DNA of 46,729 nt, taken from the NCBI GenBank assembly GCA_964581965.1, contig CAZOPU010000001.1:1-46729 (forward strand), written 5' to 3'. The notes under the pieces are model-generated. The model did not search any database. It saw only the letters and a program-made list of their open reading frames with translations, and was not told where the DNA came from. The DNA is from an uncultured Methanosarcinales archaeon. GTDB lineage: Archaea > Nanobdellota > Nanobdellia > Woesearchaeales > 21-14-0-10-32-9. Of the stretch, positions 26,530-44,269 are shown piece by piece. A program made the position numbers and the translations under genes. Position 1 is the first letter of the stretch. Each line of letters starts with the position of its first letter.

Positions 26530-26576
26530 CCATTTATTTTTTTAATTTTTTTGCGTTTATAGGGAGGGAGTATTTT

Positions 26577-26780
26577 TTGCTTTTAACAGAGAAGGAAATA
26601 GAGGTGCTTCAGCTCAGGAAATTGGGCTTGACCCAAGTTGAAGTATCTAAGAAAATGGGAATCTCCCAAGCAGCAGTTTCCAGCTTTGAGAAAAACGCAC
26701 ACAGAAAAATAGACGATTCGCAGCAAATACTGAAACTTGTTGTCCAGCTTAAAATTAATTCTGAGGGTGATAAAAAATGA
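26577..26780 (+). CDS. Small HTH DNA-binding protein (Tfx / sigma-70 region-4 / LuxR-like), upstream copy
   Basis: 67 aa. LTEKEIEVLQLRKLGLTQVEVSKKMGISQAAVSSFEKNA is a typical region-4-type helix-turn-helix. TTG start with AGGGAGGGAG 6 nt upstream. Its stop overlaps the start of the giant gene (ATGA). Confidence 0.75.
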   Translation: MLLTEKEIEVLQLRKLGLTQVEVSKKMGISQAAVSSFEKNAHRKIDDSQQILKLVVQLKINSEGDKK

Positions 26781-29700
26781 AAGGGCAGCATTCTCCTCAG
26801 AAAGACAGTGCGATGGCGAAGACTGCTGCTAATACATCAGATACAACTAAATCAGAGCCAAAATCTAATTACATCAGGATATTCCTATTTTTTGCTTTAT
26901 TTATCTCAGCAGTTGTACTTGCATTCATTTATTCTGACAACGGGAATTTCCTTACAGGAAACATAGTTTCATCAGAGACTCCTTTTGAAAATGTAATTGT
27001 AGGAAGGAATATTCTGGATGGCGAAAGAATAGATATCAATAAAGAGGTTTCTTCCATAAGAATATCTGGATCATTCAGCGGAAAAGGCTATGCGAAAGTT
27101 TATGCGGTCTCTGGAGAGACAAAGGTTTTAGTTTATGAATTCAAGGAAGAAGATACATCATCTCCGGCAGCAACAGGATTTGTTGTATATGGAGAAGAAG
27201 AAATTTCTCTGGTAGAGACTGGAGAGACATCTGCAGTGCCAAATGTGGAACTAACTGAAAACACAAATGAAAATGTAGAGCAGACAGTTGAGCCGCTGCA
27301 GGAAGAAATTACAACTATTGAGCAGACAGAAGAGCAACCTGCTGAGCAGATAACTGAAGAATATGATGCTCCTGCGCCTGAAAATATTACTGAAAATATT
27401 TCTGGTCTGGAAGAAGCGAATAACACTAATGAAACAAATGAAACATTTATTGAAGAACAAGCAGAGCAGATTCAATCAGACTTGCAAGTTGAGCTGCCTC
27501 CTCCAATTTACAGCGAAGAGAATTCAACCGAAGAAAATGAGTCTTACAACTTATCAGAGCCACAAATTCAGACAGGTGAAAATGTATCCTATAACGAATC
27601 AAACATTTCAGCAGATATTAATGTCGCAGTGGAAATTACAGGAGAAACTGGAGAGGAATTGAGCTCACCTGAAAATGCAGAGGATATAAATCAGTCAGAA
27701 AATGAAACTGAACCAGTAGAAGTTTTGCCAGAAGTATTATCCGAAAAAATATCTGTTGAAGATGGATGCGCAGAGACTTGCAGTGTTTTTCCATTCAACG
27801 CAGAATATCTTCTTTTTGAAATCTCTGATGGCTCCTTATTCATAGATAATTTCAGTTTTGTTCTCCCTGAATCTGGATTTTATTTAAAGGACAATTTCAC
27901 ATTTGTTAATATTACAGTGGGGGAATATGAGAACATAAATCTTAACGATTATTTCTCTGGTTCTGGAATATTCTTTGATTTCACATCATCAGAAGGATAT
28001 TCTTACGAGATAAGCGAGTCATCCCTTAAGATAATAGGACTTAATGAAGGGTCGTGGATGGGGAAAGTTTACGCTGTAAAAGATGATGTAATTATAGAAA
28101 GCAACGAATTTGATATTTACGTTTATCCTATTTTATCAATTAACATTTCAAGTCTCATGCAGGAAAACAATCTTACTGAGAATATTTCTGTTCCTCCTGC
28201 TGAAAATGAGTCGCCTGTGAACATTTCAGATTTGATAAATGCCTCTGTAGAAGAAGAGCCTCTTCCTTTCATAGTTGATGAGAACATCCTAAAGATAATA
28301 TCTGAAAACTCCACTGACTCCAGAGTGCGTGTTATTGTGAAATATAAAAAAGAATCTGCGCCTACTTCAGTAAAAGAATACATAGATGATGTAAAGGATT
28401 CATCTGTCAAGTTGCTTGCAGAGGAGAGCGTAGTTGATTTGATTGAAGCAAAGGAAAGGAAATACTCAGAGCTTGAAAATTTAATTGTGGAAAAGAATTC
28501 GGTATCTGCTGATGAAGAAATATCATTAAATAATATTGATGATTCTGCTTTGCCTTTGGATTTGCCTGTAGAAGAAGCAGTTTCCTCTTCTGAGAAACAA
28601 ATAACAATAGAAGATGCTCCTGCTGAAGAAACTAATAAAGAAATTAATGAAGGTATTAACGAAGAGATTAATGAAGAGGATATTATTAATGAATTGGTTT
28701 CTCTTGATTCTAAGATAAAGGAAGCAGAATTCGCAGAAAAAGTAATTTCTGCAGATGAAATAAAAGTAGAGAAATCCCTTCTTGATGCAGGAATTGAATC
28801 TGTTGTTATGGATGTTAAAGATATAGAAATCCTGAAGAACAACAAGGATATAGCTGCATTATATATTGACAATCCTGTATCCTTGCTTATAGAAGATTCA
28901 AAGGAAATAACAAGGATAGAGGAAGCAAAGCAGTTTGCACTAGATAACTTAAGCCTTGAAATAAATGGCTCAGGAATAAAAGTTTGTCTTGTTGATACTG
29001 GAATTAACTCGGTAGTGTTTAATTACAGTTATGGATTTGACTTTGTTAATAATGATTCCCTTCCAGAAGATGACAACGGCCACGGAACTTCAGTTGGATA
29101 CGCATTGAAAAGCATCTCGCCTGGTGCAGAAATAATTGCAGTAAAAGTTATGAACTCATCTGGAATGGGATATGAGTCAGATATAATAGCAGGACTTGAT
29201 TACTGTCTTGATGAAAATGCAGATATAGTATCCTTGAGTTTAGGTGGAGGAGAATACGAGGGATACTGTGATGACAATCCTGTTGCACAGAAAGTTGATG
29301 AATTGTCAAATGAGGGAATAGTAGTATTTGCTGCCACAGGAAACGACGGATATACCAGTATGATAAAGAGCCCAGCATGTGCACGCAGTGCAATAAGAGT
29401 TGGTGCAAGTACTAAGCAGGATACTTTGTGGAGCGGGACAAATTATAACAACGCAACATTGCTTCTCGCACCAGGTACAGAAATAAACACTGTTGACTTG
29501 AATGGCCAGCCAGTTTTATTAAGCGGCACGTCCATGTCTACACCTATAGTTTCTGGAATTGCATCTCTTGTTATGGGAACGGAATCGTTTTCTCCAAAGG
29601 AAATTTACGACAGATTAGTTCATACAGGAGTTCTTATTAATACATCTGAAAGAGAATTCGCGAGAGTTGATGCATTTAATGCTGTAATTAACAATATAAC

Positions 29701-32700
29701 AAACAACCTTTCAGAAGGAGAGGTAGGAATTAACGAAACTAACGGAACATACATGGTTGAGGCCAGCATAACAATAACAATAGAATCTCCTCCTACTCCT
29801 TCAAATGGTTCTACTATAGTTAATGCACCCACTATTCTTGCGAATATAACATCCACTCTAAATTCTTCAGCATGGGTAGATATTGACAGGAGTGTGTTAG
29901 GATATTATTCCATGGACTTTTATAATTCAACCGGAATTCATGATAATTCAACTTGGGGAAATTTTGCTAGTTTTGCGGGAACACTTGACAGCTCTGATGC
30001 AAGTGCGGGAAGAGTAAATTACTCTTTCAATTTTGATGGAAGCACAGCTTATGCAAGCATATCTCCAACTAGATTTGATGATGCAGAGGATGTGAGCGTT
30101 AGTGTATGGGTATATCCTCATGCAATAGCCACTAATTATCTAAGACTTCTTCAGAAAGGAGATGCATCTGGAGCTACTAGAGGATTTGGAATAGTACAGG
30201 AATCTTCAGGGTTTACAGGATTTTATCAGCCAGTATATGGTTCTAGTGAATATGGTACAACAACAAGTATTAGCGTGTCTAATAATGCATGGCATCATGT
30301 AGTTATGACTTTTGATTATGATTCAAATGAGTTAAAAATGTATATTAACGGGACGGATCGTAGTAGTACATCAAGCACAGGTTGGAGTGTAGGTACTGGA
30401 AATACTTTTGCAATAGGAAGAAGGGCAGGAGATGCACTAAATTACTATGATGGTTTAATAGATGAAGTAATAATTTTTAACAGAACGCTGACTGCAGAAG
30501 AAGTACGTGCATTATATGATGCCAGAACAAACAAGCTAAACGCTACTTTCTCTGAATTGGCTGCATCAACTCATAATTATACAATATATGCTGTGGACAC
30601 TTCAGGAAGTAGGAACAGCACGACTGTAAGAACATTTACTTCTCTTTCATCGCCTTTATATGCTTGTGATGAAGCTTTAAGTACAGGATATTATACTTTG
30701 GGAATGGATGTAACTGATCCAGATACTTGTTTTGAAACAATCACAGATGATGTGTGGCTTGACTGTGCAGGTCATCAGATAACTTTCTCAACCAGTGCGC
30801 CTACTGCATCATACGGATTTATAGGAAATAATGATAATATTTCAGTTTCTAATTGTAATATTCTTGATGGAGCTATGGCGAGTGTGGGTGACTGGAATGT
30901 AGGAGTTGTATTTGGAGATAGTGCAACTAATTCTAGTATGAATAATATTTATGTGAATGCAAACTCTCCATCAATATATGTGGAGGGAATAGGGAACAAT
31001 GCGACAAATAGTGTTGCGATAGCAGACAGTGGTACTGCTTTCTATGTTGTCAGGTGTAAGTACTGTAATATTGACAGGAATTTAGGAAATAGCAGTGGCG
31101 GTCCTGGAATTTATGGAATAAGTGTCAATAATACTAACTTTACTAATAACATAGGCCATAGTACGGTAGCTAGTGAAGGATTTGTAATGGAAGAATACAA
31201 TAACTGGAACCGTTATATAAATAACACAGGTATAAGTGATGGCACTCATGCTTTTAGGTGCGTAGATTGTTTTTACAGCGAATTTAGAAATAATAATGGA
31301 ACATCAATAAGTGGTACATGGTATTCAGGATTTCATCTTTACAATTCTTCATATAATGTCTTGGTAAACAATTCAGGTGCAGGCTATGATGGATTTGTGT
31401 TGTCCACGTATTCTAGAAACAACACTTGCACAAACAATACGGGAATAAGCAATGTGGATACTGAAGGTACCGGAACTTATGTTCATGATTCTGCTAATAA
31501 TACAATTATAAGACAAAATACCTCTTCAACTACATCAACAAGCAATGCAATTACAGTTGATGGGTCAAGCAATACTCTTTTCAAGGATTGTCTATACATA
31601 TCTGGTTTTGATGACGACATTTGGGTTACTAGTTCGAGTTCTAATGTAACTATGCTAAACTGCACATATAGTCTTGGAAAGATAACTGTTGATTCTGGCA
31701 GCCAGCTTATAAGGAAATGGTATTATATTGCATATGTTAATGATACTGCAACACTTCCTATTTCAAGTGTGAACATCTCCGCAGGGAACAGGACTGGAAC
31801 ATTGCAGTTTACAACATTGACAAATTCAACAGGATGGATTGCAAGCCAGGAATTAATAGAATCAGTAAACAACAGCGGAACTGCATACCTTGCAAGCAAT
31901 TATTCAATAAACGCTACATTATCTAATGGCTCAAGGATAGCGCACACATTCAACATAACTGTTCTTGGAAATATAAGAGATAATTTCACGTTTAACGCTA
32001 CAGGAGCTATGTTGTCTGCTTGCGCGAATCTAACAACTGCAAATGCATACTATACTTTATCTGCTAATATAACCTCAACAAAAACGTGCATAAATATTTC
32101 TGCGCAGAACGTAACAATTAATTGTAATAATTACTGGATAAATTATTCCTCTGCAAATGGGGCAGACCCAATTGCTTATGGAATTTATTCAAATCAGGAT
32201 GGTACAGTAATATCAAATTGTAATATATACGATAAGAATAGAAGTGCAAGCTATGACTCTAGGTACGGAATTGAATTGTCAGATGCGGATAATTCTATAC
32301 TTACAAATAATTTTGTAAATACTACTAGTGGAAGCGCAATTCATCTTGGCAATTCTGATTACTGTGTCCTGACAAATAATACTGGTGTAAGCAATTATTC
32401 ACAGGGAATAAGATTGGAAGGATCCACAAGCAATAACTTGACTGGAAATAAAGGATTATCTGAGACAAACGAGGGAACAGGAATTACCGGCTCTTCTAAT
32501 TATAACATATTCATAAATCATACAGGCATTTGCAGAGTGGGAAGTAGTCCATACGCAGGAGTATTTGTTTATAATTCACAGAGCAATTCATTCACGAACC
32601 TTAATGCTTCAAGCTCAATTTATGGAATTAGATTTAATGGAGCAAGCAACAATAACTTTACGGATTGTGTCTATGTGAATGGAACAGTATATAATGTATA

Positions 32701-35700
32701 TGTTATGTATGAATCAGGAAGCACCAATAACATACTTTTGAATTGTACATATGCAAATGAATCAATAAACGGAGTTTCCAATTACCTTGTTAGGAAATGG
32801 TACTTGACAGTTAATGTAACGTCCTCTGGGACAGGGGTTAATGGTGCCGATGTCACTGTTTACAATGTTTCGTCTTCAAGTGTGTATAATGAGCTTACGG
32901 ATGAATATGGACAGACCACAAAGACTGCTCTGACAGATTATGTTAATTACAATGGTACGGCAACTTACAGTACACCTTATAATGTAAGTGTTACTGGAGA
33001 TGGTCTAAATTCAAACTCATCTTCTTACAATTTAACTGCCCTGCGCAATCTTCTTGCTAATATAACTCTATATTATAATAGTACTGCTCCAAGAATAACA
33101 ATAGAATCTCCTCCTACTCCAGCAAATGGAGCGATTGTAAGTCCTCAGTTGCAAAGCATTGTCGCAAACATCTCCAGTCCTTCTGATAGGAACACCTCTT
33201 CATGGATGGACTATGACCGGACACTTGTAGGATACTTTGCAATGGACTCATATAACTCATCTGGAATATATGACAACTCAACTTGGAATTTATTTGCTAA
33301 TTTCAGCGGAGGAATAAGTGCATCAAATTTATCAGCGGGAATAAGGGGTAATGCGCTTAACTTTGATGGAAGCGATGATTACATAGTTTCTCCTCTTAGC
33401 AAAAGCTATTTCAGCAGTAATATTACTATCTCCCTTTTTGTAAAGCCGACAGGGGCGCAGTCCACTAGGGGAATTTTTCAGTTGGCAGGAGCTACGGGGG
33501 ATAGTACGCCTTGGATACTTTTGAAAAGATCAACATCTACACAGACAGTATGGTACTTAAATGGAGCGGATAGGATTACACAGACTGTGAATGATGATAA
33601 TTATACTCATTTAGCACTGACATATGATGGAAGCGTTTGGAGGGCATACAAAAATGGAGTTGCTGACGGAACATATACTGGGGGAGTTGGTTCAAACGCA
33701 GGAGAGCGTTTAATATTAGGAAATGGGTACAACGGATACTACGGAGGAGCCATTGATGAGGTTCTTTTTTTCAATAGGACATTTTTTCCGGATGAAATAA
33801 AAGCATTGTATGATTCAAGGGTAAACAAATTCAACGGTACATTAAGATACATCTTGCCTGGAACGCACAATTATACAATATATTCCGTAGACACGCAAGG
33901 GGAGCGCTCAAATACATCAGTCAGGACATTCAACGCAGGATATTCGCTGAGCGGATGTAATGATAATCTTAATATTCCAAATAGGATTTATTTTCTCAAT
34001 ACGTCCGTTACAGACGTTGATTCTTGCTTTGAAATATGGGAATCAAATATAACCATTGACTGTAATAATTACTCAGTAACATATGGTACATCAGCGTCTT
34101 CAGCGGGGAATTACGGAGTTTATTTTGGAGAGACTGGAAATTATGTAAATAGTAGTGTCAGGAATTGTATTATTTACTATGGCTCATCTTATGATGATTG
34201 GAATCCTGCAATAGATCTTCTCCAGGATAATGCATCTTTGATTAATAATACTATTTATTCATCTGTATCTATAGGAGTTTGGGTTATCTCAAAATATTCT
34301 CTTATTGCAAATAATACTGTTTTAAGTAATGGAGATTATGGATTTGGTATTGAGTCGCTTAACTATTCAAGATTTATAAATAATAGTGGTACGAGTGAGG
34401 AGGCTGTCAGCGATAATCCGGGAATCTATTTCATGAATTCATATTGGAACAATATATCGAACAGTACAGGTATAGGAGAGAATGGTGCTGGATTTGAGAT
34501 GTATCACTCATCTTATAATAATTTGCAGGATATTAAGGGAATATCTGATACCGCTGCTGGAATAGAGATGTGGGAAAATAATTACAATAACACATTCAGG
34601 AATGTTAACGCTACAAGCACAAGCTATTATGGATTGTATATTAATTATGGGTCAAGAGACAATACTTTCTATAATACTACTGTATATAGTGGGTCTAGCA
34701 CGGGTTTGTTTTTATTTCGTGACGCAAGAAATAATTCTTTTTATAATTTAACTGCAAGAACCGACGGAAGCTCAACTGTAGCTATACAATTTTATGGCTC
34801 AGGTAATATGACTTTCAAAGACTGTGCAGCGATAGCGCCAAATTATGAATATAGTGTTTATATGGATAATTCTGGAAGTGCATATGGCTCAGTCACAAAC
34901 AACACGTTTACTAACTGTACATTTACAGGAAGTGAAGTTCTAGATTCAAGCACACAGTTGATTAGGAAATGGTATTATGATGCATATACAAATGATACTT
35001 TGGGTCTTTATGTTCCAAGCGTAAATGTTACTGGTGCAAACAGGACTGGAACAAGGCAGTTCAGTGTGCTCTCAAACGGAACAGGATGGATTGCAAGACA
35101 GGAAATAATAGATTATGTAAATAATGGAGGCTCAAAGTATTATGCAAGCAACTATTCTATAAATGGAACATATAGTTCTGCAGTAATAGCTAAATCCCAT
35201 AACATAACTGTTGAAAACAACGTGCTTGACGTGTTTACATTTAACACTTCTTCATTCTGTAGGACTATTTCAGCTCCAAACATAGTTTACAATTTAACCC
35301 AGAATGTCAGCACCACAAGTACTTGTTTTACTGTGACTGCAAGCAATGTAACAATAGATTGTAAAGGGTTTAGCATAAAAGGAAATAACAACAGTGGAAG
35401 CATTGGTGTTTACAGCAACGTTCCCTATACTGCGGTTGTCAACTGTACAATTCTAAACTTCAGCACAGGAATTTATTTTAACTCTAGCGCAAATAACGGA
35501 TTAATAAATAATGTAACAATAAATCAAACATATGCAACAAGCTGCAGTGATTCTACTGGAGTGTGTGCAGCTATGTTTGGAAAGGGATCTGCTAATTTAT
35601 CAATAACTAAACTATATGCAGATAAAACATTATCAATGGCTGAAAACGCAAGCAACCTTCTGATTACATCTAGCAACATATATGATATAAGTATATATCC

Positions 35701-38700
35701 TGGTATTTCTTATGCCATGTTAAATGTGTCTATAATAAATACTACTGTTACATATATTAATCCATTTAGGGCAAATAATTCATACATGTCATCGGTTAAT
35801 ATATCATACATATACCTGGAAAGTATGAGTAATTTAACTATGACAAATATTCGTTTAACAGGTGAATTTGAGACAGACAACGCTAATAACTTATACATTT
35901 ACAACTCTACATTAAACCAGACAGGCACTACATCATCATCATACGCTATATATGCTTATAATGGAGATAACATCTCAATTGCGGACTCCAACATAACATC
36001 AGCTTCGTACGGTATTACTACATATGGTCCGTCGCTAAGTTTAAGAAACGTAAGTTTAATCTCTAAAAATACCTCTCTTGATGTGTATGCGGCATGTGGT
36101 AGCTCATCACGGAATATATCTGTTTCAAATAATTATTTTAATTCTAATGCATCTAGTGTTATTTATATTCAGCAATGCATATCTAACAGTACATTTGTAA
36201 ACAATACATTTGTCTCAGGTACAGGCACAGGAGTTCTTCTTAACATAAGCTTTACATCAGGAAATAATACTTTTTACAGAAACAATTTCACTCAAACTTC
36301 AGGGTACTACATATTCAACGGCAACAATACGAACCGCTTCAATACGTCGGTCGGTACAGTTGCCCAAGGTAATTATTATTATGATATATCCACCAAGAAT
36401 ATATTTGATGCTAACAGCGATGGATGGGGAGACTCAGGCTCAGATTATCCTCTTAATACATCTACTTGGCCGACTAAGTGGATGGGTAATGGAACAGATT
36501 ATGGTCCTGCAGTAACTGCAGTTTCTTGCTCTGTGCTTTCTGCAGCAGGCACTACATATAACCTTTCATCAAACGCAACATCATCAGGGACATGCTTTAA
36601 TGTTACTGCTGCAAATATAACTATTGACTGTAAAGGATATACAATAACTGGAAACAACGCAACAGGCACATTTGGTGTATACTCTAATTCATACAATACA
36701 ACTGTGAAGAACTGTATCATAAGGAATTTCTCAACAGGAATATATTATATTGGTGTAATTAATGGAACAATCTTCAACAACTCGATAAGTACAGAGCATG
36801 TAGAAAGTGGAGATAATGGAAAAGGAATATACATTTACGCTAGCTCAAATTACAATAAGATAATAGATACTAATGCAAACGCTACACCTTACGGTGCGGG
36901 AGTTTATATTAGTTATTCATCTAATAATACAATAATAAATACAACTGGTGTTTCTAATTCAACTTGGGGAATATATTTGATTTATAGTCCTAACAACACA
37001 ATAAGCAATTCAAGAGGAATATCTAACGAAACAGGTATTTATGTATGTGTTGGCTCTGATTATAATATTATAAAATATTCTAATGGAACATCTACAGGCG
37101 GATATATGGGAATAAGAATAGACTCCAGTTATGCGTCGCTAATATCTGTTATTGGAACATCTGTATCTGGTACAGGAGTAATGTTAGGTTCATCCATTCA
37201 TAACAATACATTATGGAATTCTTCAGGAACCGCCACATCTGGGCATGGATTAGGAGTATATTCTAATAACCATTCAATAATTAATTTCAATGCGACATCA
37301 TCAGGCAATTATGGTATTTATGTGACTGGGGCATATAATATTATTACAGCTGCAAGAGCTATATCAAGCGGTTCTGTAGGTATATTGTTTCAAGGAGGCA
37401 TAAATAATAGGGTGCTTAACAGCACATTGCAATCCTCAACTTCATCAGGTGTATTTTTATGGACTGGCTCGAATAATAATACAATATTGTATAGTAATGT
37501 ATCTGGAAGTACTGTATCTGGCTCTGGAGGATTAGCTATTGGTACAAATTCTCAGAATAATACAATAGCTAACTCTACAATAAATGGTTTAGCTACGTTG
37601 TATGCAGTCTTAATATCTGGAACTTGCTCAGGTAACGTTTTCATAAATAATACTTTTAAAAACGCAACATCAACTTTGCTTGACATAGACTTGACTTCTG
37701 GAAATAACCGTTTCTACTGGAACAATTTTACTAATGCAAGCGGGTATTATATTAATAATAGAAACAATACGAACACATTCAACACATCAGTTACAGGTGT
37801 TGCACAAGGTAACTATTATGATAACATATCGACAAAGAATGTATTTGATAGTAATAGCAATGGATGGGGAGACACGGGAGCAGATTATCCTATAAATGTA
37901 TCAACTTGGGCTACAAAGTGGACTGGAAATGGAACTGATTATGGTCCTGCTACAACAAGAACTTTATTTGTTACTGTAACATATCAATCACCTACTCCCG
38001 CAGATAACAGCAGGCAAACAGCTAATAGCGTAACAATAAATGTAAGTGTATCTGCAGGAATGAATGTCTCCAATTGTACATTGCAGTGGAACGGCACTAC
38101 AAATTATTCTATGACAAAAGTAGGAACGGGTATAAGTGTATACTGTTATAGGACCATGACTACAGTGGATGGAGGGATTTATACATATAAAGTGTATGCT
38201 AATGACAGTCTTGGTACTCTTGACAATAGCTCAACGAGAAATTTCACTGAAAATACGCCTCCCTCAGTAACTGCAACAATAACCCCTGTAAGTCCAACTA
38301 CTCTGGATAATTTGACTTGTACAGTAGGAGGATGGATAGATCCACAAGATGCTCCTGGAAATTATACATTCCAATGGTACAATGGGACGACTTTTAAGTT
38401 CTCTTCAGGACTTACAACTTCAACTACATATACTCTTCTTTCTACAAACCTCAGCATAGGAGACACATGGAATTGTACAATAACGCCATGGGATGGATTT
38501 GAGAATGGAACTGCAGTATCCACAAACAAGTATATCAATATGCCTTGCATGACATTGTCTACTGCTAATGCAATATATAATATGACTTCAAATCTTTCAT
38601 CTACAGGGACTTGCTTTAATGTAACTGCGCGAAATGTTACCTTGGATTGTCGTTGGAACTGGATAAATTTCTCAACAGGAGGATCTGGAAGCACGTACGG

Positions 38701-41700
38701 AGTTTATTCTAACCAGAATTATACTACAATAAAGAACTGTAGAATAATAGATGGTAATTGGGCAACTGGGCTTAACACCAGGCATGGAATATATTTGTCT
38801 GGTAGCAACTATTCTTATTTGTTAAATAATTTTATCAACACTAGCAATGGAAGCGCTATTTATTTATACAGCTCGGCAAACTACAATAACATTACAAATA
38901 ATACAGGATTAAGCTATTCTACATATGCAATTAATATTCGCTCATCTTCAAATAATGTGTTGGTTTCAAATAATGGTACGAGTACAATAAATATGGGTCT
39001 CGCAGTCTGGTCCACAGCTAACAATAACTACTTGTATAATAATACGGGAGTAGGATTAGGGGGAAGTGGCGGACTTTATATTGGTGTATCATCTAACAAT
39101 ACTTTGATTTCAAACAGGGGAATATGTACAGATTATATAGGTATTATTGTAGAAGACTCGTCTAATTGTTTCTTAGATTCAAATACGGGTATAAGTCAAG
39201 CAGGGAGCAATAGAGGATTATATATAGGAATATCTGCGAATATTACAGTGGTCAACCAGACTGCCACAGGATCAAGAGGAATACAGCTGACTTCTGCAAA
39301 TAACACAATAATAAAAGATTGTGTAAGCATTAACGGAACAACTTATGATGTCCATGTAGATGCCACAAGCTTAAACAACTCATTCATAAATTGCTCATAT
39401 AATACTACTGAAGAATATGTTGAATCAGGAAGCCAACTAATTCGCAAATGGTATTTTGATGCGCTGGTTACTAATTTGACTAATAGTCCGTTGGTAAATT
39501 CAAATCTAACAATATATAATAGGACTTCTTCGGCTGTTTATTCAAACCTAACAAATTCGACAGGTCACATATATAGAGCTGAGGTAATTGACTATACAAA
39601 CGTAGGAGGCACGCGGGTATACCAGACAAATCATACAGTTAATGTAACCAAACTTGGATATTATCCTAATTCAACAACATACAATGTTACAAATTATACT
39701 AATATATTTGCAACGATAAAACTAAACAAGAATCCACTTGAATTAATAGACTGCTGGACTTTGTCTGCTTCAGGAGAAACATATAACTTATCTATGAATG
39801 TAAACTCAAGCGGAACATGCTTTACAGTCACAGGCCAGAATATAGTGCTTGATTGTTTGGGATACTCAATTAATTATTCAACAGGAGGAGCGGCTTATAC
39901 TTATGGAGTTTATTCTGACCAGTATAATACAACTATAAGGAACTGCACCATTATAGACGGAAACACAACTAGCTCTAACAATAACAGATACGGAATAATA
40001 TTTGAAAGTAATGATTTTTCAGTTATTTACAACAATTTTGTTAATACGAGCAATTCAGATGCAATGTGGATATATAATGGGGCTAATTTTAATAACATAT
40101 CAAGAAATAGGGTGTATAGTAGCTCTGGAAGCGGAATTGTTCTTCATTCATCATTGAGCAACAAGCTTATAGACAATAACGCGACATCTGCTTCAGGATC
40201 AGGAGTCTATCTTGTTTCATATTCCAATAATAATACTTTGCTAAGGAACTTTGCAAATACAACAGGGTCCAATCCTGCAATTTATATTTACTCTTCATCA
40301 TATAATAACCTCACACAGAACAAGGGAGTCAGCACTTCAAGCAACGGAATAAATATTGATGAGCATTCAGATAATAATACATTGTATTCAAATAACGGAA
40401 CATCACTCGGCACTGAAAGTGCAATAACTTTGTCTAATTCAGTAAATAACAGTTTAATTAACAATTCAGGTAATAATCTCGCAGGAGGTATAGGAATTCT
40501 TGTTGCATATTCTGCAAACAACAACACTCTGATAAATAGCACGGGAACATCAACTAGTGGACAGGGAGTTTACTTGTTTTTATCGTATGGAAATAATTTC
40601 ATCAACCAAACTGCGACTGGAGCCCATGGAATTTATGTACAGACATCCAACAATACAGTATTCAGGGATTGTGGAAATATCGCAGGAAACAGCGGTCAGG
40701 ATGTGTATTATAACAGTGCGGCAGGAAGCGTGAATAATACATTCATAAATTGCTCATATACTCTTTCTGATGAAACAGTTCAGGGCTCTGCAAACCAATT
40801 GATAAAGAAATGGTATTATCAGGCATACGCTAACTATACAAACAATACTGCTGTTCCAAACGCAAATATAACAGGGGCAAACAGAACGGGATCCATACAG
40901 TTTAGTGTGCTAACAAATTCAACTGGATGGATTACAAGACAGGAAATAATTGACTATGTAAACATAGGGGGAACTAGAACATATTACAGCAATTACTCTA
41001 TAAATGGAACTAAGTCATCAAACGCGGTAAATCATTCACTTAACATATCGACATTAACAAACATGATAGATAATTTCACATTCCCTGCAAATAGCGCTCC
41101 TTCAAAAGTTACGTTGATATATCCAGGTGATGGGAATGGATCTTTCATTGAAAGGACTCCTACTTTCTCATGGAATGCAGCAACAGACCCAGATGGAAAT
41201 CCCATTACATACATACTTAATGTTTCTAATTCCAGTAGCTTTGCAACATCCACTTATATAAAGACAGGAATATCAAGCACATCTCAGCTTTATGATGCAG
41301 GAGAGCTTCCTTTTGTTACAGGATACACTCCATATTACTGGAAAGTAAGAGCTACAGATGGAACTTTAGAAGGAGAGTGGAGTGATACGTGGAACTTTAC
41401 CCTTGTAACTTCTGTCAATATTGTTTTGCTTGTTGATAATGTTACATTCCCTGCTATGAATCCAAACGTAAGCAACAGTACAAATGCAACAGGGGGACCT
41501 ACTCCTTTGCTGCTTAAGAGCACAAGCAACACTTACGTAAAGATATCTCAGATGAATGTTTCCGGAAGTCTGTGGTCTACTCAATCATTAAACACTAGCT
41601 ATTGGCAGATGAGAGTAACCCCTAAGTCTGATGGAAGCTTCAACAGCTCTTCTTTAACATCATACTTCAATGTTACAAATGTAACTAATCTAATCAGATA

Positions 41701-41821
41701 TATGAATTATTCAGCCACTAGAAATAATGCCAGCATAGACATAAATGTTACAGTTCCTCTATATGAGCCTCCGGGACAGAAATCATCATCAATAGTTTTC
41801 CTTGCACAGGTGGACACATGA
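26777..41821 (+). CDS. Giant (5014-aa) secreted surface protein: N-terminal TM/signal, acidic spacer, S8 subtilase, 2x LamG, 7 right-handed beta-helix (PbH1/NosD-like) modules, Ig/FN3-like domains
   Basis: Uninterrupted 15-kb ORF. TM segment IRIFLFFALFISAVVLAFIY. Subtilase motifs VDTGIN (D740), HGTSVG (H769), ATGNDG and SGTSMSTP (S919). LamG signatures FDGS..Y and IDEV.(I/F)FNRT...(E)E(V/I)(R/K)ALYD occur twice. Repeated module heads C...Y.L..N....TCF.VTA.N(V/I)T.DC. NosD-type ends GNYY...D.N.DGWGD..(S/A)DYP occur twice. The C-terminal FN3-like segment has TPTFSWNAATDPDGNPITY...YYWKVRATDG. Confidence 0.9.
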   Translation: MKGQHSPQKDSAMAKTAANTSDTTKSEPKSNYIRIFLFFALFISAVVLAFIYSDNGNFLTGNIVSSETPFENVIVGRNILDGERIDINKEVSSIRISGSFSGKGYAKVYAVSGETKVLVYEFKEEDTSSPAATGFVVYGEEEISLVETGETSAVPNVELTENTNENVEQTVEPLQEEITTIEQTEEQPAEQITEEYDAPAPENITENISGLEEANNTNETNETFIEEQAEQIQSDLQVELPPPIYSEENSTEENESYNLSEPQIQTGENVSYNESNISADINVAVEITGETGEELSSPENAEDINQSENETEPVEVLPEVLSEKISVEDGCAETCSVFPFNAEYLLFEISDGSLFIDNFSFVLPESGFYLKDNFTFVNITVGEYENINLNDYFSGSGIFFDFTSSEGYSYEISESSLKIIGLNEGSWMGKVYAVKDDVIIESNEFDIYVYPILSINISSLMQENNLTENISVPPAENESPVNISDLINASVEEEPLPFIVDENILKIISENSTDSRVRVIVKYKKESAPTSVKEYIDDVKDSSVKLLAEESVVDLIEAKERKYSELENLIVEKNSVSADEEISLNNIDDSALPLDLPVEEAVSSSEKQITIEDAPAEETNKEINEGINEEINEEDIINELVSLDSKIKEAEFAEKVISADEIKVEKSLLDAGIESVVMDVKDIEILKNNKDIAALYIDNPVSLLIEDSKEITRIEEAKQFALDNLSLEINGSGIKVCLVDTGINSVVFNYSYGFDFVNNDSLPEDDNGHGTSVGYALKSISPGAEIIAVKVMNSSGMGYESDIIAGLDYCLDENADIVSLSLGGGEYEGYCDDNPVAQKVDELSNEGIVVFAATGNDGYTSMIKSPACARSAIRVGASTKQDTLWSGTNYNNATLLLAPGTEINTVDLNGQPVLLSGTSMSTPIVSGIASLVMGTESFSPKEIYDRLVHTGVLINTSEREFARVDAFNAVINNITNNLSEGEVGINETNGTYMVEASITITIESPPTPSNGSTIVNAPTILANITSTLNSSAWVDIDRSVLGYYSMDFYNSTGIHDNSTWGNFASFAGTLDSSDASAGRVNYSFNFDGSTAYASISPTRFDDAEDVSVSVWVYPHAIATNYLRLLQKGDASGATRGFGIVQESSGFTGFYQPVYGSSEYGTTTSISVSNNAWHHVVMTFDYDSNELKMYINGTDRSSTSSTGWSVGTGNTFAIGRRAGDALNYYDGLIDEVIIFNRTLTAEEVRALYDARTNKLNATFSELAASTHNYTIYAVDTSGSRNSTTVRTFTSLSSPLYACDEALSTGYYTLGMDVTDPDTCFETITDDVWLDCAGHQITFSTSAPTASYGFIGNNDNISVSNCNILDGAMASVGDWNVGVVFGDSATNSSMNNIYVNANSPSIYVEGIGNNATNSVAIADSGTAFYVVRCKYCNIDRNLGNSSGGPGIYGISVNNTNFTNNIGHSTVASEGFVMEEYNNWNRYINNTGISDGTHAFRCVDCFYSEFRNNNGTSISGTWYSGFHLYNSSYNVLVNNSGAGYDGFVLSTYSRNNTCTNNTGISNVDTEGTGTYVHDSANNTIIRQNTSSTTSTSNAITVDGSSNTLFKDCLYISGFDDDIWVTSSSSNVTMLNCTYSLGKITVDSGSQLIRKWYYIAYVNDTATLPISSVNISAGNRTGTLQFTTLTNSTGWIASQELIESVNNSGTAYLASNYSINATLSNGSRIAHTFNITVLGNIRDNFTFNATGAMLSACANLTTANAYYTLSANITSTKTCINISAQNVTINCNNYWINYSSANGADPIAYGIYSNQDGTVISNCNIYDKNRSASYDSRYGIELSDADNSILTNNFVNTTSGSAIHLGNSDYCVLTNNTGVSNYSQGIRLEGSTSNNLTGNKGLSETNEGTGITGSSNYNIFINHTGICRVGSSPYAGVFVYNSQSNSFTNLNASSSIYGIRFNGASNNNFTDCVYVNGTVYNVYVMYESGSTNNILLNCTYANESINGVSNYLVRKWYLTVNVTSSGTGVNGADVTVYNVSSSSVYNELTDEYGQTTKTALTDYVNYNGTATYSTPYNVSVTGDGLNSNSSSYNLTALRNLLANITLYYNSTAPRITIESPPTPANGAIVSPQLQSIVANISSPSDRNTSSWMDYDRTLVGYFAMDSYNSSGIYDNSTWNLFANFSGGISASNLSAGIRGNALNFDGSDDYIVSPLSKSYFSSNITISLFVKPTGAQSTRGIFQLAGATGDSTPWILLKRSTSTQTVWYLNGADRITQTVNDDNYTHLALTYDGSVWRAYKNGVADGTYTGGVGSNAGERLILGNGYNGYYGGAIDEVLFFNRTFFPDEIKALYDSRVNKFNGTLRYILPGTHNYTIYSVDTQGERSNTSVRTFNAGYSLSGCNDNLNIPNRIYFLNTSVTDVDSCFEIWESNITIDCNNYSVTYGTSASSAGNYGVYFGETGNYVNSSVRNCIIYYGSSYDDWNPAIDLLQDNASLINNTIYSSVSIGVWVISKYSLIANNTVLSNGDYGFGIESLNYSRFINNSGTSEEAVSDNPGIYFMNSYWNNISNSTGIGENGAGFEMYHSSYNNLQDIKGISDTAAGIEMWENNYNNTFRNVNATSTSYYGLYINYGSRDNTFYNTTVYSGSSTGLFLFRDARNNSFYNLTARTDGSSTVAIQFYGSGNMTFKDCAAIAPNYEYSVYMDNSGSAYGSVTNNTFTNCTFTGSEVLDSSTQLIRKWYYDAYTNDTLGLYVPSVNVTGANRTGTRQFSVLSNGTGWIARQEIIDYVNNGGSKYYASNYSINGTYSSAVIAKSHNITVENNVLDVFTFNTSSFCRTISAPNIVYNLTQNVSTTSTCFTVTASNVTIDCKGFSIKGNNNSGSIGVYSNVPYTAVVNCTILNFSTGIYFNSSANNGLINNVTINQTYATSCSDSTGVCAAMFGKGSANLSITKLYADKTLSMAENASNLLITSSNIYDISIYPGISYAMLNVSIINTTVTYINPFRANNSYMSSVNISYIYLESMSNLTMTNIRLTGEFETDNANNLYIYNSTLNQTGTTSSSYAIYAYNGDNISIADSNITSASYGITTYGPSLSLRNVSLISKNTSLDVYAACGSSSRNISVSNNYFNSNASSVIYIQQCISNSTFVNNTFVSGTGTGVLLNISFTSGNNTFYRNNFTQTSGYYIFNGNNTNRFNTSVGTVAQGNYYYDISTKNIFDANSDGWGDSGSDYPLNTSTWPTKWMGNGTDYGPAVTAVSCSVLSAAGTTYNLSSNATSSGTCFNVTAANITIDCKGYTITGNNATGTFGVYSNSYNTTVKNCIIRNFSTGIYYIGVINGTIFNNSISTEHVESGDNGKGIYIYASSNYNKIIDTNANATPYGAGVYISYSSNNTIINTTGVSNSTWGIYLIYSPNNTISNSRGISNETGIYVCVGSDYNIIKYSNGTSTGGYMGIRIDSSYASLISVIGTSVSGTGVMLGSSIHNNTLWNSSGTATSGHGLGVYSNNHSIINFNATSSGNYGIYVTGAYNIITAARAISSGSVGILFQGGINNRVLNSTLQSSTSSGVFLWTGSNNNTILYSNVSGSTVSGSGGLAIGTNSQNNTIANSTINGLATLYAVLISGTCSGNVFINNTFKNATSTLLDIDLTSGNNRFYWNNFTNASGYYINNRNNTNTFNTSVTGVAQGNYYDNISTKNVFDSNSNGWGDTGADYPINVSTWATKWTGNGTDYGPATTRTLFVTVTYQSPTPADNSRQTANSVTINVSVSAGMNVSNCTLQWNGTTNYSMTKVGTGISVYCYRTMTTVDGGIYTYKVYANDSLGTLDNSSTRNFTENTPPSVTATITPVSPTTLDNLTCTVGGWIDPQDAPGNYTFQWYNGTTFKFSSGLTTSTTYTLLSTNLSIGDTWNCTITPWDGFENGTAVSTNKYINMPCMTLSTANAIYNMTSNLSSTGTCFNVTARNVTLDCRWNWINFSTGGSGSTYGVYSNQNYTTIKNCRIIDGNWATGLNTRHGIYLSGSNYSYLLNNFINTSNGSAIYLYSSANYNNITNNTGLSYSTYAINIRSSSNNVLVSNNGTSTINMGLAVWSTANNNYLYNNTGVGLGGSGGLYIGVSSNNTLISNRGICTDYIGIIVEDSSNCFLDSNTGISQAGSNRGLYIGISANITVVNQTATGSRGIQLTSANNTIIKDCVSINGTTYDVHVDATSLNNSFINCSYNTTEEYVESGSQLIRKWYFDALVTNLTNSPLVNSNLTIYNRTSSAVYSNLTNSTGHIYRAEVIDYTNVGGTRVYQTNHTVNVTKLGYYPNSTTYNVTNYTNIFATIKLNKNPLELIDCWTLSASGETYNLSMNVNSSGTCFTVTGQNIVLDCLGYSINYSTGGAAYTYGVYSDQYNTTIRNCTIIDGNTTSSNNNRYGIIFESNDFSVIYNNFVNTSNSDAMWIYNGANFNNISRNRVYSSSGSGIVLHSSLSNKLIDNNATSASGSGVYLVSYSNNNTLLRNFANTTGSNPAIYIYSSSYNNLTQNKGVSTSSNGINIDEHSDNNTLYSNNGTSLGTESAITLSNSVNNSLINNSGNNLAGGIGILVAYSANNNTLINSTGTSTSGQGVYLFLSYGNNFINQTATGAHGIYVQTSNNTVFRDCGNIAGNSGQDVYYNSAAGSVNNTFINCSYTLSDETVQGSANQLIKKWYYQAYANYTNNTAVPNANITGANRTGSIQFSVLTNSTGWITRQEIIDYVNIGGTRTYYSNYSINGTKSSNAVNHSLNISTLTNMIDNFTFPANSAPSKVTLIYPGDGNGSFIERTPTFSWNAATDPDGNPITYILNVSNSSSFATSTYIKTGISSTSQLYDAGELPFVTGYTPYYWKVRATDGTLEGEWSDTWNFTLVTSVNIVLLVDNVTFPAMNPNVSNSTNATGGPTPLLLKSTSNTYVKISQMNVSGSLWSTQSLNTSYWQMRVTPKSDGSFNSSSLTSYFNVTNVTNLIRYMNYSATRNNASIDINVTVPLYEPPGQKSSSIVFLAQVDT

Positions 41822-43113
41822 AAAAATCAATAATTTACAAAGCAATTTGTCTTATTTTGCCTGTGATAGCACTATTTATTTTTTCAGTTCATGGAGTTTG
41901 CGCATTGGGGATTGCTCCAGGAGAAAGGCCTTTTGTTTATGATGGCAAGCAGATAGAATACGAATTAAGGATAATGAATGATGAGCATAGAGATACTGTT
42001 TATAGTATAGATGTAAGTGGTGAATTAGCTAAATATGTTTCACTGAGCAAGCAAGTTGTTTCATTCACTTCAGAGAAGAATGATGAGGTTGTTTATGTCA
42101 AGTTCTTTATTCCTGAGACTGAAGAAGTATCTCCTGGGGAATACACTGTTATGATAAGTGTTAAAACTAGCGGGGAGACTAAAACAGGAGTTACTGCATA
42201 TGTGGGTGTTGTTTCCAGGCTGGAATTAACACTTCCAGGAAATGGCTCATACATAAAGATAAATCCATACGTTCCTAATTTCATAAAGGGAAAGGAAAAT
42301 TCATTCTCCATAGATGTTGTTAACAAAGGGTCTAAGACTGCAAAGAATTGTTTTGCAGTTGTAGATGTGTATACATCCATGAATGCAAAAGTTGTCTCTC
42401 TAATATCTAACAGAATAGATGTGTCTAGTTTGAGAATAGAGAATATTCTAATTCCGTGGACTCCAGACGTTAATAATGGGCAGTACTCTGCCAAGATGTC
42501 TGTTATATGCGATGAGGCTTCTGCAAAGGCAGAGTCATCATTCTCTATAGGGAGCCCGAGCGTAAAGGTGGTCAATTTTGTTTCTAGCGATTTTACCCTT
42601 GGAGAGATAAACAGGTTTGACTTAATCCTGGAGAGCGAATGGGGAGAGAATATAGACAATATATATGCTGATGTTGAATTTGCAAAGGATGGCAATTCAT
42701 TATCTAGGGCAAAAACTGAATCTATAAATGTTCGGCCTTTGGCAACAGTAAGCCTTCCAGTTTACCTTGATACAAAGGGAATGTCCAATGGCAAGTATTC
42801 TCTTTACATAATGGTTCATTACTTAGATAAGGATGAGGGAAAGATATATGATGTGACTGTAACAGAGAACAAGCTTTCTGTAGACCAGCTTAGCGGACTT
42901 GTTGTGGGAGGAAAAGGAGTTGATGAATCGCCCACTGATGGAACAAATGCGCTGCTTATATTGGCAATAATAGTAATTGTTATTGTTAATGTTGTACTAG
43001 TTTTGAGGTTAATTAAGAGGAAAGGGCCTGATAATAATACAAATAATGGGTCTTCATCGCAGGAGAATGCTTCTCCAAAAATAGATATTTCAAAAGTCAG
43101 GGGCAAGAAATAG
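41818..43113 (+). CDS. Membrane-anchored surface protein with Ig-like (CARDB/NEW3-like) repeats, coupled to the giant gene
   Basis: Start overlaps the giant-gene stop (ATGA). Signal peptide, then beta-rich repeats with patterns such as ..V.V.N.G...A.N, a C-terminal TM (ALLILAIIVIVIVNVVLVL) and a basic tail RLIKRKG. The domain family is assigned by eye only. Confidence 0.65.
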   Translation: MKKSIIYKAICLILPVIALFIFSVHGVCALGIAPGERPFVYDGKQIEYELRIMNDEHRDTVYSIDVSGELAKYVSLSKQVVSFTSEKNDEVVYVKFFIPETEEVSPGEYTVMISVKTSGETKTGVTAYVGVVSRLELTLPGNGSYIKINPYVPNFIKGKENSFSIDVVNKGSKTAKNCFAVVDVYTSMNAKVVSLISNRIDVSSLRIENILIPWTPDVNNGQYSAKMSVICDEASAKAESSFSIGSPSVKVVNFVSSDFTLGEINRFDLILESEWGENIDNIYADVEFAKDGNSLSRAKTESINVRPLATVSLPVYLDTKGMSNGKYSLYIMVHYLDKDEGKIYDVTVTENKLSVDQLSGLVVGGKGVDESPTDGTNALLILAIIVIVIVNVVLVLRLIKRKGPDNNTNNGSSSQENASPKIDISKVRGKK

Positions 43114-43122
43114 GAAAAGAAA

Positions 43123-43311
43123 ATGCTAACAAAAAAAGAAATTGATGTGCTCCAGCTCAGGAAATTGGGCCTTACTCAGGTTGAAGTATCTAAGAAAATG
43201 GGAATCTCACAAGCAGCAGTTTCCAGCTTTGAAAAAAATGCCCTTAAGAAAATAGATGATGCCAAGGAAGTTGAAAGAATAGCAAAAAGTATAATAAATA
43301 TAAAAGGCTAA
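43123..43311 (+). CDS. Small HTH DNA-binding protein (Tfx / sigma-70 region-4-like), downstream paralogue
   Basis: 62 aa. Residues VLQLRKLGLTQVEVSKKMGISQAAVSSFEKNA are identical to the upstream copy. Confidence 0.8.
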   Translation: MLTKKEIDVLQLRKLGLTQVEVSKKMGISQAAVSSFEKNALKKIDDAKEVERIAKSIINIKG

Positions 43312-43644: not shown

Positions 43645-43663
43645 CTTTTTATGAGGTGAAAAA

Positions 43664-44224: not shown

Positions 44225-44269
44225 TTTTTTTCATTCTTTTTTTAATTTACATTATACAGAGGTTGCACC

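Follow-up and report, generated by a model that had tools for sequence, protein, structure and literature searches.

A predicted operon of DPANN archaea for a giant surface protein, its putative membrane partner and small Tfx-like regulators

Introduction

Archaea of the DPANN group depend on physical contact with a host, and giant surface proteins are prime suspects for making it. We describe here a predicted operon for such a protein on contig CAZOPU010000001.1, within a stretch of 46,729 nucleotides (nt) that was analysed as a whole and is called the window throughout. Its four genes encode a small protein with a helix-turn-helix (HTH) domain (HTH1), a surface protein of 5014 amino acids (aa; the giant), a membrane protein with immunoglobulin (Ig)-like domains (the partner) and a second HTH protein (HTH2). 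Among the described surface systems, slaA and slaB are adjacent genes. In the S-layer of the Sulfolobales, SlaB anchors SlaA non-covalently, an Ig-like domain binding to a C-terminal domain of SlaA (PMC10903991, PMC6911244). The first-pass annotation of the window, made from the letters of the sequence, knew of no characterised system with this gene order, and thereby overlooked SlaA/SlaB and the WxL/WxLIP pair of Gram-positive surfaces as close analogues (PMC10903991, PMC10599100). Giant surface proteins of DPANN archaea are likewise already known (PMC10266531, which also cites Hamm et al. 2019), and for Nanobdella, a DPANN archaeon in culture, an attack on host envelopes by 'pectin-lyase-like' surface proteins of the beta-helix type has been suggested (bioRxiv 10.1101/2023.10.27.564410). 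For the HTH proteins the closest described relatives are EnfR (TON_1525) of Thermococcus onnurineus and MTH0916, promoter-binding regulators of the Tfx family, of which EnfR binds a pseudo-palindrome as a dimer (PMC10570040).

We propose, with moderate confidence and from sequence comparison, that a DPANN archaeon uses this chromosomal operon to produce and display a giant host-contact glycoprotein, probably under self-regulation, the giant being tethered by the partner and the operon controlled by its own HTH products. Two conserved linkages carry this proposal, one between the partner and the C-terminal domain of the giant, the other between small Tfx-like leader genes and genes for secreted proteins in DPANN archaea. 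Both are undescribed in the literature that we searched, an open-access subset.

Results

Layout of the predicted operon and the 15-kb reading frame

The four open reading frames (ORFs) lie on the forward strand (Table 1). Their coordinates and junctions, as first annotated, proved correct throughout when checked against the ORF list and the sequence: ATGA stop/start overlaps join HTH1 to the giant gene (26777-26780) and the giant gene to the partner gene (41818-41821), and a gap of 9 nt separates the partner's stop from the start of HTH2. A single ATGA overlap is common, being found in 10% of same-strand neighbours in related loci. HTH1 starts with TTG, 6 nt after the end of the Shine-Dalgarno-like GGGAGGGAG, which is conserved in the related locus L039 (numbers of this form denote related loci from other assemblies, 97 in all). 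The Shine-Dalgarno sequence of the giant, GAGGGTGAT at 26763-26771, sits within the terminal codons of HTH1, GAG GGT GAT AAA AAA TGA (26763-26780), which also overlap the giant's ATG; hence the '...EGDxK' tail is conserved in the 67-aa form of the HTH proteins. The partner gene has AGGTGGA 5 nt before its ATG. Archaeal transcription terminates at oligo-T stretches, and the runs of T5, T7 and T7 behind HTH2 are therefore probably the termination region at the operon end.

An open frame of 5014 codons cannot arise by chance in DNA of about 36% GC. We give almost no credence to the view that the 15-kb ORF is a mis-assembly or a pseudogene-like fusion of repeat-containing genes whose overlaps are accidental. 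The giant is highly repetitive, and in L003 two overlapping ORFs take the place of a single gene for the partner-upstream protein; however, there is no stop in the whole frame, the internal repeats share only 30-60% identity at the protein level in a self-comparison, so that collapse during assembly is unlikely, and both ends recur elsewhere. The first ~1000 aa are collinear with giants of two other assemblies (L001, 45.6% identity; L093, 35.7%), while the independent assembly L009 holds the final 222 aa at 99.5% identity together with the partner, HTH and histone genes. In addition, giants of 3233 to >5500 aa occupy the same position in six other loci. As for L003 (2-10004), the ORFs of 2047+ aa and 1294 aa have 26 nt in common, and the latter lacks a signal peptide; a frameshift, an error in sequencing or programmed recoding could account for the split within this DUF285-repeat giant.

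A conserved C-terminal module accompanies the partner

The giant had been described as having no recognisable sorting signal. We find instead that its final 232 aa are a conserved module, made of a fibronectin type III (FN3)-like domain and a C-terminal domain (CTD) of about 135 aa, which always accompanies the partner and is a candidate sorting or anchoring signal. At 13 of 13 independent loci, four of them remote, the gene directly upstream of the partner gene encodes a protein that ends in this module, with a gap of -16 to 0 nt between the two genes. The CTD proteins so placed range from 521 to >5500 aa, and their bodies carry differing domains (DUF285, beta-helix, LamG, S8). Across the 97 loci, a hidden Markov model (HMM) of the CTD found one weak fragment only outside the partner-upstream proteins, and no CTD is present in those HTH-coupled secreted proteins that have no partner. 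Pfam at E <= 1 recognises Ig_Rha78A_N/fn3 alone in the module, and a profile search against PDB sequences gave FN3 alone, for the first 95 residues. A word-indexed search with the CTD returned 2 proteins only and is hence no measure of its abundance.

The simplest and most likely reading of these sequence data is that the CTD would act as a docking signal, for which the partner would be the receptor or anchor at the membrane. Signal peptides of an ordinary kind, cleavable in appearance when judged by eye, begin the small CTD proteins; after processing, these proteins would depend on something else to retain them at the cell surface. The partner itself has the parts that were first read from its sequence, since its AlphaFold2 (AF2) model (predicted local distance difference test, pLDDT, 76.5) agrees with a signal peptide, three beta-sandwich domains, a transmembrane (TM) helix at residues 377-401 and a basic tail; a conserved ALGxxPGE follows the signal peptide. 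The family is not rare. By an exhaustive profile search it comprises at least 2773 clusters (50% identity), of which 1006 reach E <= 1e-30, and almost all are 380-430 aa long; a word-indexed search had given 10 relatives, a gross underestimate. Ten relatives were looked up, and the named ones are all called 'hypothetical protein' and come from DPANN archaea. WxLIP_HBD is the Pfam family that most partner relatives match (43 of 84 at E <= 0.01, best 2e-9). Foldseek likewise listed tandem-Ig folds, WxLIP structures (E ~1e-7) among them beside ciliary ASH domains, integrins and RbmA; these matches are generic and have low TM-scores, which makes them a lead only.

Exclusive co-occurrence with the CTD would also be expected of a transient CTD-specific helper, whether it acts as a chaperone in export or folding, in glycosylation or assembly, or as an inhibitor for self-protection, and we regard this as a serious though rather unlikely alternative to a tether. 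Ig-like and PapD/ASH-type folds head the Foldseek list, FimC appears as a non-significant PDB match (E = 0.84), and BsuPI, which inhibits a subtilisin-like protease and has a beta-sandwich fold, is weakly matched by 13 of the 84 family members, while the giant bears an S8 domain that looks active by its sequence. A role as S8 inhibitor is not general, however, because many CTD proteins with a partner, such as the complete ones of 521 aa and 527 aa, have no visible protease domain. The C-terminal TM helix and basic tail, with the ectodomain outside, fit known anchors (SlaB, WxLIP), and the stop/start overlap would favour comparable synthesis of both products, better suited to a structural partner than to a catalytic helper. 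The exclusive link between partner and CTD thus lends genuine, if indirect, support to the tether that had been supposed from the sequence; that the partner is the only possible anchor does not hold, given a plausible signal anchor at the N-terminus of the giant.

Small HTH genes lead predicted operons for secreted proteins

Both HTH proteins pass the Pfam models Sigma70_r4 (33.8 bits for HTH1 and 34.7 for HTH2, threshold 24.1), GerE (31.8 and 32.8, threshold 23.5) and HTH_3. Their best NCBIfam match is to the N-terminal 60 residues of Tfx/EnfR, which spans positions 3-60 in the model of EnfR and, of the 137 positions in the Tfx model (TIGR00721), 6-63. At 45.2 bits (HTH1) and 39.0 bits (HTH2) they remain under the TIGR00721 cut-off of 60.25, Pfam found no TFX_C match in either, and both end inside the stem helix. 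The mini-HTH, as we call it, is the Tfx N-terminal domain only and not a full Tfx; the label 'Tfx-like' first given to HTH1 applies to these residues and fails for the absent C-terminal domain.

Scans of GTDB genomes and metagenomes gave 64 unique homologs of 59-90 aa, all on DPANN-type contigs. An alignment of HTH proteins has 28 invariant columns that include the entire recognition helix. Between HTH1 and its L039 ortholog, 45 of the first 47 aa are identical at 83% nucleotide identity, and the changes are mostly synonymous; judged by these sequences, the HTH proteins are under strong purifying selection. HTH2 shares the recognition-helix region of HTH1 without a difference and 84% of the first 132 nt, and it lacks the C-terminal extension. 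Gene conversion between the two was considered and rejected, as they are identical to each other at 111 of 132 positions, compared with 109 of 132 for HTH1 and the L039 ortholog. The terminal position of HTH2 is conserved in L006 and L009.

A strong bias marks the genes behind the mini-HTH. For 47 of the 57 homologs with enough downstream sequence, a gene on the same strand starts between -25 and +10 nt from the HTH stop, 23 times at -4 (ATGA), 8 times at -8 and 6 times at -11. Such close spacing is found for 82% of the HTH genes and for 35% of control same-strand pairs in the same loci (p = 4e-11), and 43 of the 47 coupled products begin with an N-terminal hydrophobic segment, compared with 30% of control ORFs (p = 8e-16), where the Fisher p-values overstate independence because the loci are phylogenetically related. 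The downstream products vary from 43 to 5014 aa and in their domains; the uncoupled HTH genes are mostly those that trail a partner gene. A regulator that is co-transcribed with its target, which had first been singled out as remarkable, is an ordinary arrangement. The unusual part is the family-wide coupling of the mini-HTH to secreted-protein genes.

The synteny that had been recommended as a check is found across related loci. The large protein is followed by the partner in 13 of 13 loci and the partner by an HTH gene in 11 of 14, and an HTH gene overlapping a giant gene recurs in L001/L002, L007/L008 and L039. In L001/L002 and L007/L008 the HTH gene trailing the partner also overlaps the next giant, which gives tandem arrays. 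In L018 (9793-10192) two tandem HTH paralogs of 72 and 63 aa overlap by 11 nt, and the second overlaps the gene of a 751-aa secreted protein that bears the membrane-proximal N-domain of the window's giant. In L093 (11535-11865) the trailing HTH is followed by a 330-nt G/T-rich low-complexity spacer of TTTGTTGTTTGT repeats and then by direct repeats of ACTCATAAATGGGT, past which a 209-aa ORF overlaps the gene of the next giant (4959 aa; S8, LamG, PT-HINT). A tRNA-like sequence with a GGGGATTCGAACCCC T-arm on the reverse strand lies directly upstream of the HTH leader gene of L076 (~735-843), hence some cassettes adjoin tRNA genes.

Such arrays could also mean that the HTH genes are recombination handles or remnants, conserved genes of ~190 nt between which homologous recombination could swap, duplicate or delete variable surface-protein cassettes and so vary the surface, with HTH2 as the leader left from a lost cassette. 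HTH1 and HTH2 are indeed direct repeats, 84% identical over 132 nt, which flank 16.5 kb; giant-partner-HTH-giant arrays stand in tandem in L001/L002, L007/L008 and L093; and the intervening giants vary greatly in size and domains. We nevertheless consider this explanation improbable, because the purifying selection on the HTH proteins, with 28 invariant columns and mostly synonymous changes, is strong, gene conversion left no sign, and a specific promoter motif would stay unexplained. Moreover, the terminal 62-aa HTH followed by histone, LemA and M48 genes is kept in L006, where the partner is ~50% identical, so that HTH2 is not a recent remnant.

A further alternative would make the pair of mini-HTH and giant a contact-sensing switch of the sigma/anti-sigma type, in which the HTH protein is held at the membrane by the cytoplasmic N-terminal tail of its coupled neighbour, the giant, released upon host engagement or cleavage (for example by the giant's own subtilase) and then activates genes. 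Sigma factors of the extracytoplasmic function (ECF) group and their anti-sigma factors are typically encoded by adjacent, overlapping genes, the anti-sigma factor being a single-pass membrane protein with its N-terminus inside. The mini-HTH is region-4-like, the giants of the window, L001, L021 and L076 have polar, basic tails of 32-108 aa before the TM segment, and the closest structural neighbour of the EnfR monomer is the anti-sigma-bound sigma-4 of SigL (PMC10570040). However, the hydrophobic segment begins within the first 40 residues in 40 of the 47 coupled genes, mostly by residue ~5-12, and little if any cytoplasmic domain is then left that could bind a regulator; the long tails are of low complexity and not conserved in sequence; and the trailing HTH2 has no such neighbour. 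An ECF sigma factor comprises region 2 and region 4 and has a neighbour with a conserved anti-sigma domain, and here Pfam gives a region-4-like HTH only. We therefore hold this switch to be very improbable.

A putative promoter motif upstream of leader-type HTH genes

The exact sequence GTTATATWAC has only two matches in the window, both in the 295-nt region upstream of HTH1 and each within one copy of a repeat that we call D1 (Table 1). Copy 2 is the candidate promoter/operator. Copy 1, nearer to the divergent gene at 25262-26281 (-), could serve as another operator or belong to the promoter of that gene. Copy 2 is the window's version of a family motif: upstream of leader-type HTH genes we find a TATA box plus TATAAC/GTTATA half-sites with the consensus AAAGCTTTATATAACC-N6-AAGTTATATAAC. 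A B recognition element (BRE) with TATA box, AAAnnTTTAWATA, is present in 41 of 49 leader upstream regions and in 43 of 194 control regions; in most leader regions it begins 39-50 nt ahead of the start codon. Half-sites coincide with the TATA box and recur ~18-22 nt further downstream, in many cases in the form of the palindrome GTTATATAAC. Of the 49 leader regions 55% contain TATATAAC, of the 194 controls 1%. Half-sites number 1.73 per 120 nt in leaders, 0.16 in controls and zero before trailer-type HTH genes, and HTH2 has no upstream motif of its own. A site over the TATA box and the likely transcription start is the position at which regulators are expected to interfere with initiation. Because the half-sites overlap both, we propose autoregulation, of either sign; the family motif is, by its sequence and position, a candidate autoregulatory operator.

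In the window, the segment 26474-26576 is ~93% identical to L039 and exceeds the coding region in conservation. Between the putative promoter and the HTH1 start lies the palindrome GCCACTTTAAGTGGC, the stem of which is conserved in L039, where the loop alone differs. This hairpin, probably part of the 5' leader, may be an attenuator or a second protein-binding site. A sigma-70 promoter scan of the window was set aside as not meaningful for an archaeon.

Anatomy of the giant

The hydropathy scan confirmed that the giant has an N-terminal hydrophobic segment alone: aa 33-52 are its sole such segment, and no C-terminal TM segment was detected. Preceded by 32 polar, positively charged residues, aa 33-52 probably serve as a signal anchor that we take to stay uncleaved. 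The giant has 296 N-X-S/T sequons and would, if exported, be glycosylated. The membrane-proximal N-domain behind the anchor is common to a subset of HTH-linked proteins, its HMM matching L001, L007, L018, L021, L039, L056, L064, L093 and others. An acidic linker leads on to a subtilase domain whose catalytic triad is intact and in order, D740 (DTG), H769 (HGT) and S919 (GTSMS), with N856 in addition, so that the domain looks active by sequence. Behind it follow the first LamG domain and then an array of beta-helix modules, similar to polysaccharide lyases and adhesins, which are interspersed with beta-sandwich domains and the second LamG module, up to the CTD module (Table 1). A word-indexed homolog search with aa 1-700 was empty, probably swamped by low-complexity acidic words, and the orthologs were found later via the related loci.

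A second giant gene stands in L001 (11573-21272; JGI 3300044712, a 938-kb contig). It is an ortholog of the N-terminal 1000 aa of the window's giant, is annotated as 10,320 aa and is open over all 3233 codons examined; if real, it exceeds the protein of 9,409 aa that is the largest reported in cultivated archaea (PMC10266531). Its TM segment is preceded by a Lys/Ser-rich cytoplasmic tail of 85 aa.

Host and genomic surroundings

The window is chromosomal DNA of a DPANN archaeon of the Woesearchaeota/Nanoarchaeia type. It encodes an archaeal RNase P RNA, tRNAs, a histone, tRNA synthetases, Dus and RNase HII, and relatives of the HTH and partner proteins belong to metagenome-assembled genomes of Woesearchaeota, Pacearchaeota and Nanoarchaeia; the small-genome archaeon first presumed as host is thus recognised as DPANN from its RNase P RNA, its histone and these relatives. 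A viral or mobile origin of the cassette was considered and rejected, as IMG/VR viral contigs gave no match to the partner and one distant match to the HTH proteins, and housekeeping genes stand on either side.

Downstream of HTH2 (43396-46577) follow genes for an archaeal histone, LemA, an M48 peptidase, a GIDE-domain protein and a further LemA. The same order follows the terminal HTH gene in L006 (3549-7731; partner ~50% identical) and L009 (2277-4346), therefore the 3' junction of the operon is evolutionarily stable. On the upstream side, two tandem DUF1653 paralogs of 177 and 183 aa (24126-25213, -) each carry a C-terminal extension of ~100 aa beyond the 62-aa Pfam domain. They adjoin a 339-aa ORF without Pfam match (25262-26281, -), which is divergent from the operon and shares with it the intergenic region that holds the first operator-like repeat. 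Farther away, a 313-aa ORF (4419-5360, +) weakly matches Zot (zonular occludens toxin, a phage-assembly P-loop protein; E = 5e-7) and may be a mobile-element remnant; a gene for a PLD-like nuclease/phospholipase adjoins it on the opposite strand.

Table 1. Genes, protein domains, putative control elements and RNA genes of the window (positions as counted from its first nucleotide).
Feature	Position	Strand	Basis and remarks
tRNA-Met	9425-9502	-	
tRNA-Ser	14239-14322	-	
RNase P RNA	18227-18527		
D1 repeat, copy 1 (45 nt, AT-rich)	26332-26376	+	divergent intergenic region; GTTATATTAC at 26362-26371
D1 repeat, copy 2 (candidate promoter/operator)	26467-26514	+	TATA-like AAAATATATAAACC, then AAGTTATATTACTTATAA
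Hairpin/palindrome GCCACTTTAAGTGGC, then long T-runs	26515-26552	+	perfect 5+5, extendable to 7+7; terminator-like
Shine-Dalgarno-like GGGAGGGAG	26562-26570	+	before HTH1
HTH1 gene, 67 aa	26577-26780	+	sigma-70 region 4 / LuxR-type HTH, equivalent to Tfx residues ~3-60
Giant surface-protein gene, 5014 aa	26777-41821	+	ORF list, Pfam, self-comparison, hydropathy scan
Giant: hydrophobic segment, aa 33-52	26873-26932	+	hydropathy scan
Giant: membrane-proximal N-domain, aa 52-129	26930-27163	+	HMM; '...SGxFxGxGxAKVYAVS...'
Giant: acidic linker, aa 126-330	27152-27766	+	composition: 24% Glu, rich in Thr, Asn, Ser
Giant: subtilase (Peptidase_S8), aa 731-951	28967-29629	+	Pfam E = 6.3e-29, 101.6 bits (cut-off 21.8)
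Giant: Laminin_G_3 (concanavalin-like lectin) domain 1, aa 1087-1243	30035-30505	+	Pfam E = 1.2e-42, two stretches
Giant: at least 7 diverged parallel beta-helix modules (NosD/Beta_helix, pectate-lyase-type)	30584-41101	+	Pfam, 6-7 stretches
Giant: second LamG-containing module, ~aa 2161-2447	33257-34117	+	paralog of aa 1051-1347, 35% identity (self-comparison); two Pfam stretches
Giant: C-terminal module, aa 4782-5014	41120-41818	+	FN3/Ig_Rha78A_N-like domain and CTD ending ...VPLYEPPGQKSSSIVFLAQVDT
Partner gene, 431 aa	41818-43113	+	signal peptide, three Ig-like beta-sandwich domains, C-terminal TM
HTH2 gene, 62 aa	43123-43311	+	HTH1 paralog; last gene of operon
T-runs (T5, T7, T7)	43320-43369	+	read in sequence; probable termination region
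Partial tRNA, truncated by window end	46687-46729	-	Rfam 30.3 bits

Discussion

Taken together, the data suggest the following course of events. One promoter would drive HTH1, the giant, the partner and HTH2. The giant would be exported by means of its N-terminal signal anchor and glycosylated, and the partner, translated by a coupled start from this one transcript, would bind the CTD non-covalently and fix or present the C-terminal end of the giant at the membrane. With an anchor at the N-terminus and the partner at the other end, the giant may be held as a structure attached at two points, whose enzymatic and lectin modules would act on the host envelope. HTH1 would bind the TATAAC/GTTATA half-sites over its own core promoter, and both HTH proteins, with their identical recognition helices, would feed back on it. 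As HTH2 is the last gene, the output of regulator would also depend on transcription reaching the end of the 16.7-kb unit.

Several points weigh against this proposal. The giant has its own TM segment, hence a tether is not strictly needed. The window's partner scores 27.4 with WxLIP_HBD, below the Pfam cut-off of 28.9, its Foldseek matches are generic with TM-scores of 0.2-0.36, and its profile has no significant match to a solved structure among PDB sequences; the AF2 model of the CTD, built from an alignment of three sequences, has a pLDDT of 40. On the side of regulation, the copy of the motif in the window is diverged (GTTATATTAC) and stands ~80 nt upstream of the start rather than ~20 nt, and an AT-rich motif over the TATA box could be a strong-promoter architecture of the clade and not an operator. 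The relatedness of the loci lowers the weight of the linkage statistics. Moreover, the trailing HTH gene is missing at three partner loci, and the leading one is missing for two of the four complete CTD proteins, hence the HTH protein is not obligatory for the pair of giant and partner. Tether, regulation and co-transcription are, finally, all read from sequence.

It would go further to see in the mini-HTH and the giant a signalling device new to archaea, an idea that we find improbable. In one version the N-terminal tail would capture the HTH protein and release it on host contact or self-proteolysis, as an archaeal counterpart of sigma/anti-sigma trans-membrane signalling. In the other, the operon would hold a 'completion sensor': HTH1 is encoded first and HTH2 last on a 16.7-kb transcript, they share the recognition helix and differ in their dimerisation tails, and homo- and heterodimers could switch the state of the promoter only after the genes of giant and anchor have been transcribed and translated. 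Where HTH-led cassettes stand in tandem, cross-regulation could also give mutually exclusive expression of alternative host-contact proteins.

The tether and autoregulation that we propose would matter beyond this window. The conserved CTD would mark a class of DPANN surface proteins of ~0.5 to >5.5 thousand aa, and a widespread, unannotated Ig-like, TM-anchored family of at least 2773 clusters would be its obligate genomic partner and probable anchor. In Woesearchaeota, Pacearchaeota and Nanoarchaeia, operons for secreted proteins would be headed by the Tfx-derived mini-HTH, with a promoter motif that can be recognised. If the proposal is true, host-interaction proteins could be traced through CTD and partner in thousands of uncultured genomes, and the HTH motif would give initial access to the control of transcription in organisms that possess very few regulators.

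Among known giants, the SPEARE proteins of Nanohaloarchaeota are most similar to the protein described here: DPANN surface proteins of >5000 aa with an N-terminal export signal, Ig/FN3-like and lectin-like modules and a presumed role in host contact, which take up a large share of a small genome (PMC10266531). However, SPEARE ends in TM segments and a cytoplasmic VirB4/TraG-like ATPase and is followed by a gene for a VirB4-like ATPase, whereas the window's giant has no match to an ATPase family in Pfam or NCBIfam and no C-terminal TM, and the gene downstream of it encodes the Ig-like partner. The subtilase of the window is clearly intact, while the protease of SPEARE is disputed in PMC10266531. 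With Tfx, the mini-HTH shares the sigma-70-region-4-like HTH and the start of the 'stem' helix; in contrast to Tfx, it has, at 60-70 aa, neither the acidic alpha+beta 'note-head' nor the greater part of the stem, it was confined to DPANN archaea in our scans, and it is coupled to secreted-protein genes where Tfx stands alone near metabolic operons. GerE of Bacillus is an HTH-only regulator of similar size and fold, and the mini-HTH passes its Pfam model. GerE has 74 aa and controls genes of spore-coat, that is surface, proteins, yet in a sigma-dependent bacterial context and not co-translated with its targets; the two are linked by generic HTH homology only.

For giant and partner, the likeness to SlaA/SlaB is one of architecture. 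There, too, a large and heavily N-glycosylated outer protein goes with a protein of 400-475 aa, SlaB, in which a signal peptide is followed by three beta-sandwich/Ig-like domains in the N-terminal part and by a C-terminal TM, and the outer component is more variable than the anchor. Unlike SlaB, which has a trimeric coiled-coil stalk of 132 aa, the partner has in its AF2 model ~13 disordered residues between the last strand and the TM helix, and neither sequence search nor Foldseek matched it to SlaB. The giant differs from SlaA in being a modular protein laden with enzyme and adhesin domains, with its own N-terminal TM, rather than a lattice former, and an HTH gene belongs to the unit in the window. 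The WxL/WxLIP systems of enterococci and lactobacilli (DUF916-DUF3324-TM; PMC10599100; PDB 9i1y, 9i25) share with the locus the tandem Ig-like ectodomains, the single C-terminal TM and the position of the gene beside that of a large surface protein with a conserved C-terminal domain. The partner has this architecture, which is a shared feature and not proof of homology. In contrast, WxLIP_PGBD (DUF916) was found in 2 of the 84 partner relatives (best E = 0.0024) and not in the window's partner, which is also below the gathering score of WxLIP_HBD (PF11797); the giant and nine CTD sequences gave no WxL-domain match even at E <= 1, profile searches with the partner against PDB sequences did not find WxLIP, the partner has three Ig-like domains rather than two, and it belongs to an archaeon without peptidoglycan. 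By analogy, then, partner and CTD appear as a counterpart of SlaA/SlaB and of WxL/WxLIP, and possibly as a distant relative of WxLIP rather than a member of that family.

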